Shown piece after piece: positions 50,756 through 58,679 of a stretch of 64,000 bases of DNA. The notes beneath the pieces are model-generated. The model was not told where the DNA came from, ran no database searches, and worked only from the letters and a program-made list of their open reading frames with translations. Position 1 is the stretch's first letter. Every line of letters begins with the position of its first letter. Made by a program: the position numbers and the translations under genes. Where the stretch lies: contig JBEGVH010000026.1 of NCBI GenBank assembly GCA_041178425.1, forward strand, positions 1-64,000. Direction: 5' to 3'. Source of the DNA: Pseudomonadota bacterium (GTDB lineage Bacteria; Bdellovibrionota; Bdellovibrionia; Bdellovibrionales; Bdellovibrionaceae).

Positions 50756-51616
50756 TTATTGAGCCTTTTGTTTTTGTGCGGAGCCGTCTGGCACTATGTT
50801 TTGTGTTATAAAATCTCGGTAATAGCCAGCGTGGCTGTAAACGGAAACTCCGCCGCAGCGATCAAAGAAAAAAGGCCCAGCTCTGCTTGTAATGCCTATC
50901 AAAAAATACTCCGCATTTTTGTAATAAAAGGCAGGGCCGCCCGAGTCGCCAAAACAAGAGCCCGTTCCGTCACGTTGATTCAAAACAAATTCACCTGCGC
51001 CCCACTGACTTACAAGAACATTCACGTTCACTTTACGTAAAGTTCCATTTTCGCTTTTCGAATCATCACCTGTAGCGCCATACCCGGCGAGGAGAAGGCG
51101 GTCTCCATTTTTTAAGATCATGTTCTTGGGTGCAATTTTCGCTACCCGGTGACTGGTGGGAATGTCTTCTTTGAGTTGAATGACGGCAACATCCCCCAAG
51201 TCTTTGGTGAATCGGCGGGGATCTTTTCTTCGTTCATCATATCCTGGTAAGATAATCACTTTAGAAGGAGAGATGATGTGATTGGGCTTGTGGATGTTTG
51301 GTCCAAAAAGAACAAGAGCACCGTATTTTGAAGTAATGCAATGTGCGGCAGTGACCACGGTACGCTTACTCACAATGGTTCCAGAGCAAAGCCCCATTGT
51401 ATCAACATCAACGACGGCAACAGTGTACTTTCTAACTAAGTCATGGGGAGCAGGGATCTCGCCACCGACAATGGCGTTAGGGGATTCACCGAGAGGCGCC
51501 GTTTCGCCAGGATAATTAAGCGTTTCTTTTAAGGAGGAGGGGTTCTGGTTCTTCGGGGAGCAGGCTAAAAATTCCATGCCAAGAAAAATGGCCATAATTG
51601 TGTGACGAGCTTTCAT
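50756..51616 (-). CDS. Trypsin-like serine protease lipoprotein (S1)
   Basis: Lipobox FLAC; IVGG; CSGTIV; TAAHC; DVAVI; GDSGGP. Confidence 0.93.
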   Translation of the reverse strand: MKARHTIMAIFLGMEFLACSPKNQNPSSLKETLNYPGETAPLGESPNAIVGGEIPAPHDLVRKYTVAVVDVDTMGLCSGTIVSKRTVVTAAHCITSKYGALVLFGPNIHKPNHIISPSKVIILPGYDERRKDPRRFTKDLGDVAVIQLKEDIPTSHRVAKIAPKNMILKNGDRLLLAGYGATGDDSKSENGTLRKVNVNVLVSQWGAGEFVLNQRDGTGSCFGDSGGPAFYYKNAEYFLIGITSRAGPFFFDRCGGVSVYSHAGYYRDFITQNIVPDGSAQKQKAQ

Positions 51617-52823: not shown

Positions 52824-54194
52824 ATGATGAAGTTGGTCATATCTTTTGTTTTTACTTTTTCGATTTCTGTCGTTTTAGTCGCAAAGAATAATCGCTATCT
52901 CTCTTCAACGCTTCATAGTCTTGACTGCCTGCGCTCGCCAACGGGCTTGGTGGCGGATTCAGCTTTTGTGTTGCCTCGCTCGTATGGAGCCCCTGACAGA
53001 GTTATCAATCCATCGGGATTGGAGTCGACTTGTCCTATTGTGTTGGTGAATCAACAGACGTCGCCAACGAATATTGCTCTCGATTTAATTTTACTGATGG
53101 AGCAAAAAAGATGGAGTGATGTCGAGGAGTTGATGACAACTCTAGAGAAAATGCCATTTCATGCGTCGACGGGTCTTTTTTATAATCGCTACGATATCAA
53201 GAACCCAAATAGTGTGAGCGATTACTACGTTTCGTCGGTGGATAATGTGCACCTTGTTTTGGCGTTATGGGTTTTGGGTGAAATAAAAGTCAAAAAGTTT
53301 TCTTTGAGTCAGAGAGCTCTTCAGCTCAGCCGTCGTTTCAATTGGGAGGAGCTCATTGATCCCACAACGGGCTTGGTGCGTGGGGGCTTATCGTATGATG
53401 GTACTCAATTCCACCCAGCGCCTTGGTTTTATTCTCACGCTGGTTCGGAAGCTCGCACTCTTTATTCGGTTGGCTATGCCATCGGTTTTGTAAAAAAACA
53501 GGTTTCCGAGAAAGCGTTGACGTGGGAGTTTCATCATCAGAGATCATTCGGCGAAATGATGCGCACTTGGGATGGTGGAGTGTTTCAAATGCTTTTGCCG
53601 GAATTATTAATACGTGAGTCTCGTTATTCACGAAGGCTAAAATCAGCCTTCCACAATTTTTCGCGTTTTGCGTTGGCGCAGTCCGAGGGGGCACCTGTTC
53701 CTTTACTTCATTCCGCCTGCCAGTTAGGTCCTTTGGACTTTGTGTCTTGGCAGCGAAATGACTGTGGAGTGGATCAGCCTTGTTATCTTGGTCGATCCGG
53801 TCACAAAGAGTTGATAAGTCATGCCAATACGGATCGCTTAGAGCCCAGCGATCAAGAAATGCGAGAACGAGCGAGTACTCTTCATGCAGTTTTTTTAGCG
53901 GCTCTGTTTGAACCAAGGGCTTATTTAACGGCCCTTAAAAAGACGGAGGGAATAAGCTCGGAGGGTTATTCTCTCTATCATTCCCAGATGGGATGGATGG
54001 ACTCTATTCATGTGAGTGGACCACACAAAAATAAAGTAGTGCCGATGGTGCTTTCTCTCGATCAGGGAATGGCCGCGTTGGCAATGGTTCGTATGAGTTC
54101 TCAAGATGGTGATAATGTTGTTTCGCGAACCCTGGCGGCGAATCCGATGGCCGCGAAACGTCTTCGCACCATTTATGCTGGATGGGGCCTGTAA
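52824..54194 (+). CDS. Glucoamylase-like (alpha/alpha)6 glycoside hydrolase (DUF3131/GH144-like)
   Basis: TSPTNI, GLFYNRYD, VSSVDN, SEAR, TWDGGVFQMLLP, LSLDQGM; signal peptide. Confidence 0.7.
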   Translation: MMKLVISFVFTFSISVVLVAKNNRYLSSTLHSLDCLRSPTGLVADSAFVLPRSYGAPDRVINPSGLESTCPIVLVNQQTSPTNIALDLILLMEQKRWSDVEELMTTLEKMPFHASTGLFYNRYDIKNPNSVSDYYVSSVDNVHLVLALWVLGEIKVKKFSLSQRALQLSRRFNWEELIDPTTGLVRGGLSYDGTQFHPAPWFYSHAGSEARTLYSVGYAIGFVKKQVSEKALTWEFHHQRSFGEMMRTWDGGVFQMLLPELLIRESRYSRRLKSAFHNFSRFALAQSEGAPVPLLHSACQLGPLDFVSWQRNDCGVDQPCYLGRSGHKELISHANTDRLEPSDQEMRERASTLHAVFLAALFEPRAYLTALKKTEGISSEGYSLYHSQMGWMDSIHVSGPHKNKVVPMVLSLDQGMAALAMVRMSSQDGDNVVSRTLAANPMAAKRLRTIYAGWGL

Positions 54195-54353: not shown

Positions 54354-55169
54354 ATGTTAACTCTTAAAAAGAGTCGAAAGAGATTGAAAAACTACATGAG
54401 TGTTTTTTTGTCTTTGCTGTTTGTGAATCCGCTGGCATGGAGCTGTGATCCAAATCAGGATTGTATGTCGTGGGTGAGAGTGCCTTGTCCTACGTGGAAG
54501 TACCCTGCACGATCGTGCATGAAGCGCATCGAGGATGTCCTTTGTTCAGCCGCGCGCAAGGTTTGTCAGAAAGACTGCAAAAGTATCAATCAGGATGCCA
54601 ACTCCTATATTTTTGGCTTCCGTGGCGAAAGTGAAAGAATTAAGAACGAAGTCTCAACGATCGAAGCAGCCATTGTCTCTGAGATTCAGCATGGGAATCA
54701 CTATGCTCATTTGGTCGAAGAATTCATCGACTCCTTAGCACAAACAGAAAGGGCCGGAAGCAATGCCCTTTTGCTCTTAACTCGGACCTTGCCCCTGGAG
54801 ACGTTTTTTCAAGAGAACCAATTATTTGATTCACCTCTGGCGCAAGTGATCGAGTTAGCAAAAAAATCCCCCGATGCGCAAATTCAGCTCATGGGAGCGC
54901 TTCTCGAAAGATCACAAGAATTAGAGTCTCGAGTGTTTGAGGTATTCGAAACAGAAGGGCTAGTTGAGGCCCTGCAACTCATGGTGATTGTGTTTAAGCA
55001 AGAGGCACAGAAGTTAAGGCAGCAAATCAGTGCCACGAACCAAATCCGCAAAGAAACAGAGCACAAGAGAGTTTTACTTGAAGCCATCAGAAAGCAGAGA
55101 GAGGGAGAACTTCGAATGCTAGACTCGAATATCAATAAACAGGAGATGAGAAAATGCACACCTTGGTGA
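54354..55169 (+). CDS. Exported protein with Cys-rich N-domain and long coiled-coil; gene 1 of toxin locus
   Basis: GGAGG RBS; signal peptide AWS|; seven Cys in about 45 aa then heptad-rich helices; overlaps next gene. Confidence 0.7.
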   Translation: MLTLKKSRKRLKNYMSVFLSLLFVNPLAWSCDPNQDCMSWVRVPCPTWKYPARSCMKRIEDVLCSAARKVCQKDCKSINQDANSYIFGFRGESERIKNEVSTIEAAIVSEIQHGNHYAHLVEEFIDSLAQTERAGSNALLLLTRTLPLETFFQENQLFDSPLAQVIELAKKSPDAQIQLMGALLERSQELESRVFEVFETEGLVEALQLMVIVFKQEAQKLRQQISATNQIRKETEHKRVLLEAIRKQREGELRMLDSNINKQEMRKCTPW

Positions 55170-56050
55170 TTCCAATGATCATTGTTTTTGGATTGATTGA
55201 GGCAAAGGCCAGAATGCCACCGGCTTTTGGCCCAAAGGCTGTAGCCCTAGAACACATTGTTCATAACTATCAACAGCAGCGGCTTGTTTGGGTCAACATT
55301 GCCAAAGGTCTTAAGGCCATCGGTACTGATTGTAAACCCACCGGACAAAGCAGCCTCAGCACTCAGATCTTGGCTGATTGCCTTTACAAAATCGATGTCG
55401 CCGTTGCCTCCATTGATCGAGCGGAGGTTCGTTCGCCGCTGCTAAATCGCCGGCTCACTCAAATTCCAAACGAATTTAATTCTATCAGAGAGGCCATTAA
55501 AACTGATTGTAATGAAAAACAAAGATGGCTGCGGCAGCAAAAAAACATGTTGGCTGAAGTTGGTCATTATCTTTTTTCTCAAATGAAGGATCGCGTTCTC
55601 GTAGATATAAAGCACGATTTAAATCAAATCAGTAAACGGAAGCGATTGGAAAGTCTCTGTTTGTCATCGGACAATAGCTTATCGGTGTTCAAGAAACTGA
55701 TCTCCTTTTACGAGAGCCAGGCTCCTGAATACATCGAGTTGGATCGCCTTAGAACTCAGATTGTTTATCAAATTTGGCTTATGGATTTTTTGAAAGATCA
55801 ATGCCCCTCGCAGCCCTCTCTAACTGAGATCAGAGAGGTTCTAAAAAAAGTTGAGCTTTTGGTTAATCAAAAAACATTTACCGAATACAAAAAGAGAGCG
55901 TGTCACGGGGGTGAGAGTTTTGGAGAGGTTGAGTCTTTTGAGTGCCTGCAGCTACCGCAAACACCCGAAGCGCTCAGTGTTCTCTCGCGAATGAGTGAGC
56001 AAAGTCGGTCGATAAAGTCTGTTAAGGCTAGCCCAGGAGGAGCTCAATGA
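55154..56050 (+). CDS. Exported alpha-helical Cys-containing protein; gene 2 of toxin locus
   Basis: AGGAG RBS; signal peptide AKA|; helical with spaced Cys; ATGA overlap with the toxin gene. Confidence 0.7.
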   Translation: MHTLVIPMIIVFGLIEAKARMPPAFGPKAVALEHIVHNYQQQRLVWVNIAKGLKAIGTDCKPTGQSSLSTQILADCLYKIDVAVASIDRAEVRSPLLNRRLTQIPNEFNSIREAIKTDCNEKQRWLRQQKNMLAEVGHYLFSQMKDRVLVDIKHDLNQISKRKRLESLCLSSDNSLSVFKKLISFYESQAPEYIELDRLRTQIVYQIWLMDFLKDQCPSQPSLTEIREVLKKVELLVNQKTFTEYKKRACHGGESFGEVESFECLQLPQTPEALSVLSRMSEQSRSIKSVKASPGGAQ

Positions 56051-57549
56051 TATCAACAGGTAAAAAGATTCTTAATATCACCTTGAGTTTTTCTCTTTCG
56101 GGGTTTTCTTTGCCTTCGTTTGCACAGGAAGTAGATCGCCCGGTTTTAGTGAGTTCGGTCATTGAGATTGAGCTCGGTGGCGATGGTGAGCGCTTTGGGC
56201 AGTGGAACCGAGAACACACAAAGTACCGATGCGAATATGGATGTGGCCCACACCGGTCTTCCGATGGAAATGGCTATGGTAACGGTGCTAATGCAGGGCC
56301 TCCGGCATCGAGTGGAGGCGATGGAACAAAAGGTTCAAGCGGCGATCATCGTGATAGTCGATTTCACAGGAGTGACCAAGAAAGAAGTCTTAAAACCGAG
56401 GAGTCTGCGTGGAGAGACTACCAAGACCAGGTGGCGCATAAGAACACGAGTGTGCGAGAGTCGCTGCGACTACTTTGGCAGAAAGAAGACATCCATTTTT
56501 ATGACGACGATTTGGCTACACTTCTCCTCCAGCGAGGGAAACCTGCCTCAAGGCAAGAAGATCAATACCAGTCTTCGGAGGATTTTATCGATCGTGCGAT
56601 GCCTTCTCAATTGAAGAATCACCCTTATCTTCCCCTTCGCAGAGATACGCTCGGAGGACTGGTGAGTGACGCCTATCAGAGTCACCATAAAGAGGAACTC
56701 TCGATGATTCGTCATGGCTATTTGGCCCAGCATCCGAAATCACCTCAGGCTAAGGAGGCCTATAGGGCTGGGCTTTTTGCGCTGAAGGAAGCCGATCAGG
56801 CCTACTTGCAGGGGTTTATAAAGGCGGGTGAGTATTTTGAAAAATCAGCTCGATTACTTTTAGATGTAGTGAGTGACCTCAATCCAATGACAGCTCTCAC
56901 CAAAGATCTCTATCGGGTCTTTGTAGGAAAAGATCCGGTGACGGGTCTGCCGTTGAGCGCGGGTGAACGTTTAATTTTCGGAGGCCTCTCGATTTTAGGA
57001 GTTGTGACGCTTGGGGAATCTTCGCTCTTAGAGGCGGGATTAGGCCGAATGGTGAAGCTCGTCAATGCTAGCGCTGGTGAAGCGAATACTGTTTTGAAGA
57101 TTTTTTCACAAGCCAGAGCGATGGCTCATGCCGCTGGAGTGAATGGGCGAGAGGCATTAAAAAACTTTCTCTCAATCGTTCAAAATGATGTGGGTGCCGT
57201 TGGTGATATTGGATTTCTTTTACAGAGCGTAAATAAACACGGACTTTGGTCGAAGGGGCAATATAAAAAGAGTGTTCAAAATGCTTTTTCGCACTTTAAA
57301 AAACACCGCACTGAGTTTCCAGAACTGAAGAACGGCATTGAGTATGTTGAGGCTGCCCATGACTTTATTACTAGTCCCCCATTGGGAACTTTGTCAAAAA
57401 CCCGTGCTAACGGAGAGAGAATTTTGTATTCTCCCACAAGTGACGTGTTTGTTGTTCAAAGTGTGGATGGTGCACCAAAAACAATGTTTAAACCCAATCC
57501 CGCGGTTCATGGGTACAAAACCAATAAGGAGTACTACGATGCCCAATAA
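56047..57549 (+). CDS. Polymorphic toxin: Sec signal peptide, pre-toxin TG-like domain, C-terminal nuclease-like toxin
   Basis: AGGAGG RBS; signal peptide SFA|; DLNPMTALTKDLYRVFVGKDPVTGLPLS.GER (PT-TG-like); tip NAFSHFKKH..EF...EYV..A..F...PP.GTLSKTR.NG...Y.P...F.V....G.PKTMFKP. Confidence 0.8.
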   Translation: MISTGKKILNITLSFSLSGFSLPSFAQEVDRPVLVSSVIEIELGGDGERFGQWNREHTKYRCEYGCGPHRSSDGNGYGNGANAGPPASSGGDGTKGSSGDHRDSRFHRSDQERSLKTEESAWRDYQDQVAHKNTSVRESLRLLWQKEDIHFYDDDLATLLLQRGKPASRQEDQYQSSEDFIDRAMPSQLKNHPYLPLRRDTLGGLVSDAYQSHHKEELSMIRHGYLAQHPKSPQAKEAYRAGLFALKEADQAYLQGFIKAGEYFEKSARLLLDVVSDLNPMTALTKDLYRVFVGKDPVTGLPLSAGERLIFGGLSILGVVTLGESSLLEAGLGRMVKLVNASAGEANTVLKIFSQARAMAHAAGVNGREALKNFLSIVQNDVGAVGDIGFLLQSVNKHGLWSKGQYKKSVQNAFSHFKKHRTEFPELKNGIEYVEAAHDFITSPPLGTLSKTRANGERILYSPTSDVFVVQSVDGAPKTMFKPNPAVHGYKTNKEYYDAQ

Positions 57550-57817
57550 GAGTTTTAGCCTATTAAAACAGTGTCGTGTTTGTGGTTATGAATTTGATGA
57601 TTTGTATCCGTGGGGTGTTGATGGAAAAACGCCTTCATTTGAAATATGCGATTGCTGTGGAACTGAGTTTGGTCATGATGATGCAACTCTCTTGGCGATT
57701 AAACAAAAACGAGCGAAGTGGATCGAAGGTGGTGCTCTGTGGGCGCGGCCTCAGGTGCGCCCGTCTCATTGGAGTGTGGAAACAGCATTGGCAAAAATTC
57801 CTCATGAGTACCTGTGA
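57539..57817 (+). CDS. Cys-rich (CxxC...CxCC) immunity protein
   Basis: AAGGAG RBS before ATG 57539 overlapping the toxin stop; CRVCG...PWG.DG..PSFEICDCCGTEFG.DD....R.KW...G..W; no signal peptide. Confidence 0.8.
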   Translation: MPNKSFSLLKQCRVCGYEFDDLYPWGVDGKTPSFEICDCCGTEFGHDDATLLAIKQKRAKWIEGGALWARPQVRPSHWSVETALAKIPHEYL

Positions 57818-57836: not shown

Positions 57837-58598
57837 CTAACGTGATCCCTGTGAGTACTCGTTCTCGGTATCGTTTTGGTTGAGAAGTGTTGGATGCCGG
57901 GGGGTATGTCCCTTTTTGCAGTACTTCGATTCGATTCGGTGAATAGAATAGTCGAAGGTTTTGTAGTTCGAAAATAAGTTGGGAGAATAGAACGTCGGAT
58001 TTTTCGCAAGAAAATGATAGCATGTTTGTCCGAACGTTATATAGCGTGTGTAATCACACGGCGTGGAATCAAGCAACGCCTGAGCACGAGTGAATTGGGA
58101 TTTTGAATCAAAGTGAGTGTCTACATAACAGGCGCCATTCATTGGACGAATCCCCTTTGGGCACTCGGCGATGCTCACCGTTTCGCTTTTTCTTCGGTTG
58201 GGGTTCTGATCATTCTCTGTTTTCATACACGACATGTTTCCGATTTTCCAGAAAAGAGGCTTCGTTGAATTGCAATGAAAAAAACTGACAGGCCGCAATT
58301 GGTATGGTTTTTGGTTTTGCGATTCTGAAGCTGTGTTAATTTGTTCAGATTCCAATTTAAAACAACTTTTACCATCAGAGAGGAATACGGGCTTGCCTTT
58401 ATTGCAAAGGCTAGCGTCGCGAATAATTTCATTTTCTCCCGAAGAATCACTCTCAGCTCTCTCGACACAGTGGCCGTTATTATTCCAATAAACTAGCGGT
58501 ACGCCTGCTTGCGCGGCGACTCCGTAAGAAAGAACGCTGACTGTCAAGATGAGTGACGCGATCAGTGGTGTGGCCGTTCTTTTTTGCGGTTTCTTCAT
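57837..58598 (-). CDS. Exported Cys-rich hypothetical protein
   Basis: GAGG RBS before ATG 58598; signal peptide AQA|; loosely repeated P.F....(G).SC.K.E...V....C units. Confidence 0.7.
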   Translation of the reverse strand: MKKPQKRTATPLIASLILTVSVLSYGVAAQAGVPLVYWNNNGHCVERAESDSSGENEIIRDASLCNKGKPVFLSDGKSCFKLESEQINTASESQNQKPYQLRPVSFFHCNSTKPLFWKIGNMSCMKTENDQNPNRRKSETVSIAECPKGIRPMNGACYVDTHFDSKSQFTRAQALLDSTPCDYTRYITFGQTCYHFLAKNPTFYSPNLFSNYKTFDYSIHRIESKYCKKGHTPRHPTLLNQNDTENEYSQGSR

Positions 58599-58634
58599 GG
58601 TTTCCTCATCTAAAAAATCCTCATTGTTTACTTC

Positions 58635-58650
58635 TGCAAACAAAGTGCCG
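58635..58650 (-). promoter_or_regulatory. sigma54 promoter for the gene starting at 58598
   Basis: CGGCACTTTGTTTGCA, GG-N10-GC. Confidence 0.65.
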
Positions 58651-58679
58651 ATGGAATGTCTCAAAATGAGGCATGCGTT

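Follow-up and report, generated by a model that had tools for sequence, protein, structure and literature searches.

Several described systems resemble parts of the locus analyzed here. The CDI toxin CdiA-CT of E. coli O32:H37 is a colicin D-like, EF-Tu-dependent RNase, and its immunity protein CdiI binds Fe3+ through cysteines (PMC12585627). LXG toxins of the T7SSb are accompanied by two Lap partners (PMC10801868). In the SitBAI system of myxobacteria, which serves kin discrimination, the lipoprotein SitA is transferred through TraAB membrane exchange, SitB is a predicted beta-barrel, and many loci lack the accessory gene, which carries a type I signal (PMC5562445). The 'T2SS/Sec-dependent' polymorphic toxins, including MafB, form a default bin for which Table 1 of the report gives no signature neighbours (PMC3482391). 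For toxins carrying the PT-TG domain, a 2026 survey treats the route of those without a known trafficking domain to diderm targets as an open question (PMC13483458). The same survey reports PT-TG with T6SS and CDI and in diderms, so that the view of the initial annotation, which took PT-TG as typical of T7SS/LXG toxins, is too narrow.

We analyzed a stretch of 64,000 nucleotides from a Bdellovibrionaceae contig (the window), in which four overlapping genes (Table 1) form what we read, with confidence and doubt about evenly balanced, as a cassette in which a Bdellovibrionota predator encodes an exported polymorphic toxin and its immunity protein, related predators being the most likely targets.

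Table 1. Features of the four-gene cassette, in positions of the window
Feature	Position	Strand	Length	Description
gene 1	54354-55169	+	271 aa	putative signal peptide; putative exported partner
gene 2	55154-56050	+	298 aa	putative signal peptide; all-helical partner
gene 3	56047-57549	+	500 aa	polymorphic toxin with putative signal peptide
predicted partner-binding helix	56398-56535	+		toxin residues 118-163; from the complex model
toxin core	56689-57066	+		residues 215-340: helical hairpin, PT-TG (272-331), Gly-rich hydrophobic stretch
toxin tip	57247-57549	+		gene 3 residues 401-500; homologue of CdiA-CT O32:H37
gene 4	57539-57817	+	92 aa	cytoplasmic Cys-rich putative immunity protein

The genes overlap by 16 nt (1/2), 4 nt (2/3) and 11 nt (3/4), in accordance with the four overlapping genes noted initially, and all four reading frames are intact. 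The host genome contains one copy of each. Two public runs, possibly this DNA's own source, each have the stretch within a single contig piece, and a hand reading of gene 1 against the public runs gave 7 synonymous changes among 11 strain differences. A Pfam search (E up to 1) returned PT-TG and three sub-cut-off matches on gene 4 and nothing else, and NCBIfam gave sub-cut-off matches only; Rhs, PAAR, VgrG, LXG, FHA and MafB families were found by neither on genes 1-4, as had been noted from the sequence. Promoter and terminator counts at the locus were not above those of shuffled sequence. The upstream flanking gene had no match in four same-genus genomes, and the cassette itself was without counterpart in three of the four other same-genus genomes searched. 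A trypsin gene at 50756-51616, considered as a part of the cassette, was rejected, being on the opposite strand and 2.7 kb away with two genes between.

The cassette shares with the O32:H37 CDI pair (8EY4; PMC12585627) a homologous tip and a small Cys-rich protein as the mate of the pair, but it has no filamentous CdiA stalk, PT-VENN or adjacent CdiB, and gene 4 belongs to another Cys-rich family than CdiI. Unlike CdiBAI in general, gene 3 encodes only 500 aa without filamentous haemagglutinin repeats or a TPS domain by Pfam. The likeness to LXG/Lap loci, as far as these are covered in the part of the report used (PMC10801868), consists of two upstream helical partners, a PT-TG toxin, a downstream immunity gene and a helical-bundle complex with the toxin N-terminus, which is modelled here; in contrast, the present cassette is in a diderm, its products have signal-peptide-like starts and conserved Cys, the partners are 270-300 aa, the toxin has no LXG match and no WXG100 was found in the host genome. 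SitBAI likewise comes from a predatory host and has an overlapping accessory-toxin-immunity operon (PMC5562445, in part), whereas gene 3 has no lipobox (no Cys in the first 60 residues), the gene 2 model is all-helical, and PT-TG, present here, has 0 mentions in the covered text of that report. The 'T2SS/Sec-dependent' toxins have in common with the cassette a signal peptide, a variable tip and a downstream immunity gene, but the MafB domain is absent here; neither Bdellovibrio nor PT-TG occurs in the 300,000 of 357,715 characters covered of that report (PMC3482391). Bdellovibrio PT-TG proteins do stand in the supplementary table of the 2026 survey, in its Pandoomain PT-TG singleton group, where 10 rows match Bdellovibrio, at least 2 of them with the architecture PF14449 only; its main text follows up a T7SS-linked W10XG subset and nowhere names Bdellovibrio, and the passages covered have no signal-peptide class or exported partners (PMC13483458). 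Streptomyces umbrella toxin particles are exported multi-protein particles carrying a polymorphic toxin, but no ALF repeats, lectin or twin-arginine motif was seen in the cassette, and a Foldseek row for 8W20 was not significant (E 0.34, TM 0.22).

We assessed signal peptides by eye and with a crude rule based on hydropathy. The rule is passed by genes 1-3 but not by gene 4, and across the toxin family by 71 of 76 toxins compared with 8 of 75 downstream genes; it is lenient, since 534 of 935 long host ORFs (57%) pass as well. The proposed Sec-type signal peptides of genes 1-3 are to this extent supported; the h-region of gene 3 is the weakest of the three. The SFA-Q motif of gene 3 is kept in a 52%-identical homologue. 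With regard to secretion systems, TssC, VgrG and PAAR were not found in the host genome (rated 100% complete, 43 contigs; controls positive), nor was WXG100 (controls positive in 3 of 14), and the T2SS secretin GspD was found with 576 bits against a cut-off of 351. PF03934 was dropped as evidence for a T2SS, having matched in most controls too. PF03865, the CdiB/TpsB transporter family, had no match in the host and none in the control either.

The gene 3 product consists, in order, of the putative signal peptide, a Gly-rich N-terminus of low model confidence, the partner-binding helix, the helical core with PT-TG and the RNase tip. PT-TG (PF14449) lies at 56860-57039 with 31 bits against a cut-off of 23.5, close to the 56854-57000 assigned by eye; the core also has the Gly-rich hydrophobic stretch (residues 310-328, mean KD 1.63). 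The core is the sole part common to the whole toxin family, and its pLDDT in the monomer model is mostly 70-85, although the model of the entire protein is poor (mean pLDDT 48). In a Foldseek search with this model 8EY4_A was the only match. Residues 409-488 match this chain, the E. coli O32:H37 CDI toxin, over 80 residues with E 8e-24, and the SHFKKH motif aligns with its GHWTKH, so that H416 and H420 face the histidines of HWTKH and the Trp there is Phe here. The nuclease-like tip noted initially is borne out, and as a homologue it is a predicted RNase of the known CdiA-CT O32:H37 family.

Gene 4 was correctly recognized from the start as a small, cytoplasmic, Cys-rich protein gene overlapping the toxin stop. 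Its CxxC...CxCC pattern is invariant in 8 homologues, and in an independent genome a member of this family lies directly after the same tip (locus L139, homologue E 8e-39). Neither gene 4 nor its 8-member alignment matched PF14206 or chain 8EY4_I, and the likeness to CdiI O32:H37 and Cys_rich_CPCC is weak (hhalign 68% over 29 columns); at another locus, L073, the same tip is paired with a true CPCC immunity protein that matches both. As judged from these alignments, gene 4 is a separate Cys-rich family weakly similar to Cys_rich_CPCC. Genes 3 and 4 are very probably a toxin-immunity pair.

The gene 2 model is all-helical with an N-terminal three-helix bundle (pLDDT 89.9, pTM 0.59), and among 36 representatives C169 and C217 are invariant and C250 and C264 are conserved in at least 90%. 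Fold searches gave generic bundle matches and no specific fold, and the Atlas no usable match; ClyA ranked 17 (Z 10.5, rmsd 3.4, 141 aligned), tied with unrelated helical bundles. When the partners were modelled together with the toxin, gene 2 bound the partner-binding helix with a score of 0.64 against 0.00 for the best control. This mark is reached by 116 of 157 solved pairs and 2 of 215 mismatched pairs, counts that apply only roughly here because our own alignments and three chains were used. The interface is helix on helix, the toxin helix packing on gene 2 helices 1 and 3 and completing a four-helix bundle; the runs agree in at least 32% of contacts, and the partner pLDDT is at least 57. 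The bound toxin segment has pLDDT below 50 in the monomer model, and the toxin region around the interface is poorly conserved. From the model, gene 2 and the toxin probably form a complex. Gene 1 has a Cys-rich head (PCPTW), which differs from locus to locus, followed by a long hairpin of helices that has a Cys close to either end (C75, C268), and we infer that it is an exported partner. The model gave no contact between it and the toxin that was confident, so that the idea of two exported helical proteins complexing with the toxin has support from the model for gene 2 only. The Atlas model of gene 1 (pTM 0.53) has SMC/colicin-type coiled coils as structural neighbours (TM 0.44-0.55, none above the naming bar), and an Atlas identification as CagL was dropped as sub-threshold (0.76). 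Homologues of gene 1 are 47-48% identical. A scan of genome contigs gave 3 loci only, and metagenome locus scans with the gene 1 and gene 2 alignments found no relative. One search with gene 2 gave 7 weak matches other than itself, two of which were taken further.

Of 401 phylum genomes sampled (Bdellovibrionota, by named relatives), 65, or about one in six, contain the toxin core, and PT-TG occurs in 29 of 182 genomes of the family. Among 79 toxins there are 19 tip clusters, a small gene lies within 40 nt downstream of 75 of 81 toxins, and immunity clusters largely track tip clusters. Eight loci share the partner type of this cassette (type B) and carry four tip clusters, which gives the conserved sets with variable tip and immunity that had been suggested as a search target. 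On the sequence level these comparisons show tip and immunity to be exchanged together among relatives while partners and core persist, and, having a conserved pre-toxin part, variable tips and immunity that changes with the tip, the cassette belongs to the polymorphic toxin systems. In addition, among 32 second-downstream genes tested there are 4 that look like immunity genes, and two of these fit tips absent from their own locus. A single tip cluster is found in the nine closely related type-A loci of Bdellovibrio, which is little swapping for an arms race among kin. Starts resembling signal peptides are conserved across families, as are the partner Cys, and the loci lie in varied neighbourhoods, sometimes near mobile-looking genes.

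Two upstream partners, noted initially as often needed by PT-TG toxins of the T7SS/LXG type, are not a requirement in this family: by our rule for coupling, no partner is coupled upstream of 36 of the 76 complete toxins (14 of the 36 are lipoprotein-like), and partner types A-D have no detectable homology to one another, indicating that the partners are not a universal entry device. Nor do partner-coupled toxins have a higher content of helix formers ahead of the core than toxins standing alone (40 vs 22, p = 0.41). When, as an independent test, the gene 2 profile was run on 877 ORFs from 40 newly fetched regions, the top three matches (E 1.4e-5, 2.3e-5 and 5.3e-4; six Cys each) were all directly upstream of a toxin, and the five strong matches in 182 family genomes were all beside toxins, at the same five loci that seeded the profile. 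Only 2 of the 401 phylum genomes matched with six candidates scored per genome, a scoring by which the distant copies in L140, L142 and L150 of the same sample were missed. Profile-profile comparison gave weak support for three distant relatives, with a probability of 4% and E 0.011 against E 0.64 for a reversed control, and their gene 1 neighbours had no match to gene 1.

In the mechanism we propose, Sec would carry the products of genes 1-3 across the inner membrane. In the periplasm they would acquire disulfides and join into a helical rod, in which gene 2 would be the adaptor and gene 1 a long stalk, possibly deciding which targets are chosen. Once folded, the complex would leave most plausibly by the host T2SS or in vesicles; at the target cell the PT-TG core and the hydrophobic stretch would bring the tip to the cytoplasm, where it would cut RNA with the help of EF-Tu, and gene 4 would guard the producer and cells sharing the cassette. 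We regard the export route and the entry step as doubtful. The partners could instead be only periplasmic chaperones or secretion adaptors that are later shed, with the toxin entering targets alone like a bacteriocin. The uncoupled toxins, the unrelated partner types, the position of the gene 2-bound helix far from the conserved core and the precedent of the Lap proteins for LXG toxins, as described in part of PMC10801868, agree with such a role, but the conserved Cys and elongated folds of the partners would suit an extracellular function and the gene 1 head varies between loci, and we hold it to be rather unlikely.

Competition between predators and attack on prey had both been put forward. 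The exchange of tips and the spare immunity genes point to kin more than to prey, and we lean slightly to kin as the main target. An intraperiplasmic predator such as Bdellovibrio must cross the prey inner membrane only, and with this sole barrier a complex secreted in the prey periplasm could deliver an RNase that stops prey translation, gene 4 serving for self-protection only. An analogous four-gene operon of B. bacteriovorus, Bd2177-2180, bears on this. By RNA-seq, Bd2179 had 15 RPKM in growth phase vs 0.6 in attack phase (21 growth-phase reads) and Bd2180 65 vs 0.8 (25 growth-phase reads), which fits a role in predation, whereas arrays gave no induction of the operon on prey entry (fold change 1.0-1.2, not significant); the operon is barely transcribed in one dataset, and two datasets differ in direction. 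As the patchy presence, the swapped tips and the immunity genes for foreign tips fit conflict among relatives, use against prey seems improbable to us. Genes 3 and 4 might also persist by addiction or drift without delivery to other cells. The low expression of the B. bacteriovorus operon, the missing counterparts within the genus and the varied, partly mobile-looking neighbourhoods are in line with this, but the intact frames, the conserved signal-like starts and partner Cys and the mostly synonymous differences in gene 1 make it a very improbable explanation.

Returning to the exported cassette, a further-reaching suggestion, to which we give less than even odds, is that Bdellovibrionota have a delivery route of their own. 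Helical particles stapled by disulfides, each made up of a PT-TG toxin and one or two exported partners, would be assembled in the periplasm and exported, and would recognize and enter other predators, possibly rivals in the same prey cell. Of the undescribed delivery class envisaged at first, the cassette itself and the lack of a listed delivery domain stand; the tip belongs to a known family, and the pair of partners is not universal. Our literature searches turned up no description of toxin-immunity warfare among predators of the Bdellovibrio type, and a full-text search no mention of Bd2177-2180; the toxin family is apparently widespread in Bdellovibrionota without an earlier description that we could find. 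If the suggestion is true, it would be a family of predator-versus-predator weapons that has recruited several partner types independently, and a model predator would hold an example open to testing. Predator ecology and the combined use of predator strains as living antibiotics would both be affected by the answer. B. bacteriovorus can be manipulated genetically, and its operon Bd2177-2180 allows direct tests of the target, the export route and the role of the partners. The CdiA-CT O32:H37-type tip was also found on Rhs, on other N-termini and on an M48 lipoprotein.

The cassette of genes 1-4 belongs to the polymorphic toxin class and is a real and widespread variant of such systems, apparently undescribed, with an RNase tip of a known kind, judging by homology, and a modelled toxin-partner complex. 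The four overlapping genes proposed in the initial annotation were recovered as open reading frames with successive overlaps of 16, 4 and 11 nt (genes 1/2, 2/3 and 3/4). Each is present once in the 3.06-Mb host genome, and the four-gene stretch is unbroken, in one contig piece, in each of two public runs. The pre-toxin segment noticed in gene 3 is a Pfam PT-TG domain at residues 272-331 (E 2.5e-7); genes 1, 2 and 4 had no Pfam match above cut-off, and NCBIfam gave none above cut-off for any of the four. Sec-type signals had also been proposed for genes 1-3 and were judged by inspection and a hydropathy rule. All three genes pass this rule, as do 71 of 76 related toxins and 8 of 75 downstream genes, but the rule is lenient, since 534 of 935 long host ORFs pass it too.

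Coordinates of the four cassette genes in the window
Feature	Position	Strand	Description
Gene 1	54354-55169	+	ORF, 271 aa
Gene 2	55154-56050	+	ORF, 298 aa
Gene 3	56047-57549	+	ORF, 500 aa, PT-TG toxin
Gene 4	57539-57817	+	ORF, 92 aa

The nuclease-like tip ascribed to gene 3 was confirmed by homology of residues 409-488 to PDB chain 8EY4_A (E 8e-24), whose entry title names the E. coli O32:H37 CDI toxin in complex with its immunity protein. According to a conference abstract (PMC12585627), the E. coli toxin is a non-specific RNase resembling colicin D and dependent on EF-Tu, and its immunity protein binds Fe3+ via cysteines; a 2026 preprint agrees. Partner-less toxins carry the same tip family, and so do an Rhs protein, a lipoprotein with an M48 peptidase and a 712-aa protein whose N-terminus differs, indicating that the tip is a mobile module. 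The lipoprotein (L160:4084-5748) combines Peptidase_M48, PT-TG and this tip, and no obvious immunity gene was seen within 550 bp downstream of it.

In gene 4, CxxC...CxCC is invariant among 8 homologues. The CPCC family neutralises the toxin of E. coli, and gene 4 is not detectably a member of it (hhalign 68% over 29 columns); at locus L073, by contrast, the tip family of gene 3 is paired with a true CPCC immunity gene. At L139, in another family, the same tip is followed by a gene 4 homologue (E 8e-39) that overlaps the toxin stop, which by sequence supports gene 4 as the probable cognate immunity gene. Spare or tandem immunity genes were seen at L069 and L062 (both as the +2 gene), L078 and L080; the +2 gene of L069 matches the immunity genes at four loci with tips unlike that of L069 itself (L076, L138, L148 and L159).

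PT-TG is present in 29 of 182 family genomes, and a profile built on the toxin core, which comprises a helical hairpin and PT-TG, matches 65 of 401 sampled genomes of the phylum, in 18 families. We assembled 81 toxins: the window's own, 38 loci from two prior genome searches and 42 genes in 40 regions, chosen from 90 core-profile places with strong scores and long contigs favoured. A gene of at most 350 aa lies within 40 nt downstream of 75 of them, and the tips of the 79 long enough for comparison form 19 single-linkage clusters. An upstream gene that is coupled and begins with a hydrophobic segment accompanies 40 of the 76 complete toxins, and 31 have two such genes; the other 36 have none, and 14 of these show a lipobox-like motif. 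The coupling rule misses some partners and gives some false positives, for example where a toxin start is split (L063 and L155). Partners fall into type A (about 300 and 205 aa), type B (genes 1 and 2 of the window), type C (about 340-430 aa), type D (about 180-215 aa) and further types, with no detectable homology between types by hhalign against reversed controls.

Gene 2 used alone as query gave seven weak non-self matches, two of them directly upstream of independently found toxins. A gene 2 with the conserved cysteines and a gene-1-like hairpin are common to five family loci (the window, L008, L009, L064 and L065), and the gene-1 subgroups align at 66% probability in profile-profile comparison. 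A 35-row gene-2 profile found strong copies in the 182 family genomes at those five loci only, a partly circular result. As an independent test, the profile was run on the 40 new regions; the three best-scoring of their 877 ORFs (E 1.4e-5, 2.3e-5 and 5.3e-4) all lie immediately upstream of a toxin, come from two other families and have six cysteines each. That position is held by 19 of 233 ORFs of at least 200 aa, giving by hand a chance of about 5e-4, for matches that are not independent because two of the three come from one family. Profile-profile comparison gives these distant relatives weak support (E 0.011) and finds no match for their gene-1 neighbours. Four tip clusters occur among the eight type-B loci, so neither of the refuting outcomes, invariant tips and unlinked partners, applies, and the expected variable tips beside co-conserved partners are borne out.

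The gene 2 model (pLDDT 89.9, pTM 0.59) has long helices and an N-terminal three-helix bundle, and structural search matched generic bundles and no specific fold; that of gene 1 resembles long coiled-coil hairpins of no named family. In a three-chain model of genes 1-3 the toxin scored 0.64 versus 0.00 for the best control. Of solved pairs, 116 of 157 attained the mark used, as did 2 of 215 mismatched ones, counts that are only a rough calibration here given our own alignments and three chains. Contact agreement between runs was at least 32% and partner pLDDT at least 57. Toxin residues 118-163 and 180-189 are predicted to contact gene 2, mainly its helices 1 and 3, and swapping out gene 2 abolished the score. 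Of the claim that both partners bind the toxin, the model favours the part concerning gene 2, but gene 1 makes no confident contact. The toxin contact region is of low confidence in the monomer model and poorly conserved, and partnered and stand-alone toxins could not be told apart by a composition test for a partner-binding helix (p 0.41).

No TssC, VgrG, PAAR or WXG100 turned up in the host genome, which has a T2SS secretin; PF03865, for TpsB, gave no match either, in a search whose control was silent as well. The products of genes 1-3 would be exported by Sec and assemble in the periplasm, and release might proceed by T2SS or vesicles. In 40 of 81 toxins no other 19-mer of the mature protein is as hydrophobic as the stretch in the core (gene 3 residues 310-328, KD 1.63; family median 1.32), a modest hint of membrane contact. 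Several features favour kin as target: the immunity protein is cytoplasmic, tips are swapped, the cassettes are patchily distributed, and 4 of 32 second-downstream genes look like spare immunity genes, two of the four for foreign tips. A predator-specific toxin particle is conceivable, and we regard it as somewhat improbable. Expression data, which concern a different partner type, are not decisive on the target. The B. bacteriovorus records CAE80013-16 have the same sequences as the four proteins of the type-A locus L053, and their product names and lengths match those of Bd2177-2180 in published tables. In one data set these genes are nearly silent in attack phase, with low growth-phase RPKM (4.6, 4.9, 15 and 65; PMC3627812); in a second they are unchanged on prey entry, and Bd2177-2179 are roughly 3-5-fold down in prey-independent growth (PMC2797640).

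The cassette would work like LXG-Lap (PMC10801868) or SitBAI (PMC5562445), but lacks the defining features of both. PT-TG was originally defined on Gram-positive toxins (PMC3113570). The searched part of a 2012 survey (PMC3482391) does not mention Bdellovibrio, and its sole fitting bin is the default Sec bin; a 2026 PT-TG survey (PMC13483458) gives Bdellovibrio proteins in a supplementary table, leaves them undiscussed, and describes the distribution across diderms as unexplained. No published account of such a Bdellovibrio system was found by title or abstract start, with most subscription journals outside the scope.

Other architectures accompany the same core. The 14 partner-less lipoprotein toxins, by lipobox pattern (L061, L062, L066-L068, L070, L071, L077, L138, L151, L154, L156, L159 and L164), are reminiscent of myxobacterial SitA, and four have TNT-like tips by Pfam, one alone above cut-off. 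Type-A cassettes (L053:4045-7356; L010, L011, L052, L054-L057, L059, L060, L082 and L083) have both partners unrelated to the window's; these align weakly with each other (E 0.002), and the database names 'flagellar GTP binding protein' and 'Rhs family protein' have no Pfam backing. L010:1141-4593 and L011:3070-6507, near-identical cassettes of one genome with four exported upstream genes each, join a type-C-like gene to both type-A partners. Giant stand-alone toxins of 1118-1236 aa (L146, which ends in a RES domain, L149:2209-5565, L166 and L167) might be partner-toxin fusions, and L149 (G320:C1:253000-272000) holds three PT-TG cassettes of differing architecture in about 13 kb.

The genes flanking the window's cassette (52824-54194 and 57837-58664) have no Pfam family above cut-off; the upstream one had no counterpart in four same-genus genomes searched, and the downstream one, on the opposite strand to the cassette, is Cys-rich and probably exported. 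In a 2850-bp piece of run X3, 11 of 14 differences fall within the first 250 bp of gene 1 (54413-54605), 7 synonymous and 4 not as read by hand, a cluster resembling a recombined tract across the leader and Cys-rich head. The tip is covered in that run by a separate 136-bp piece with 9 differences.
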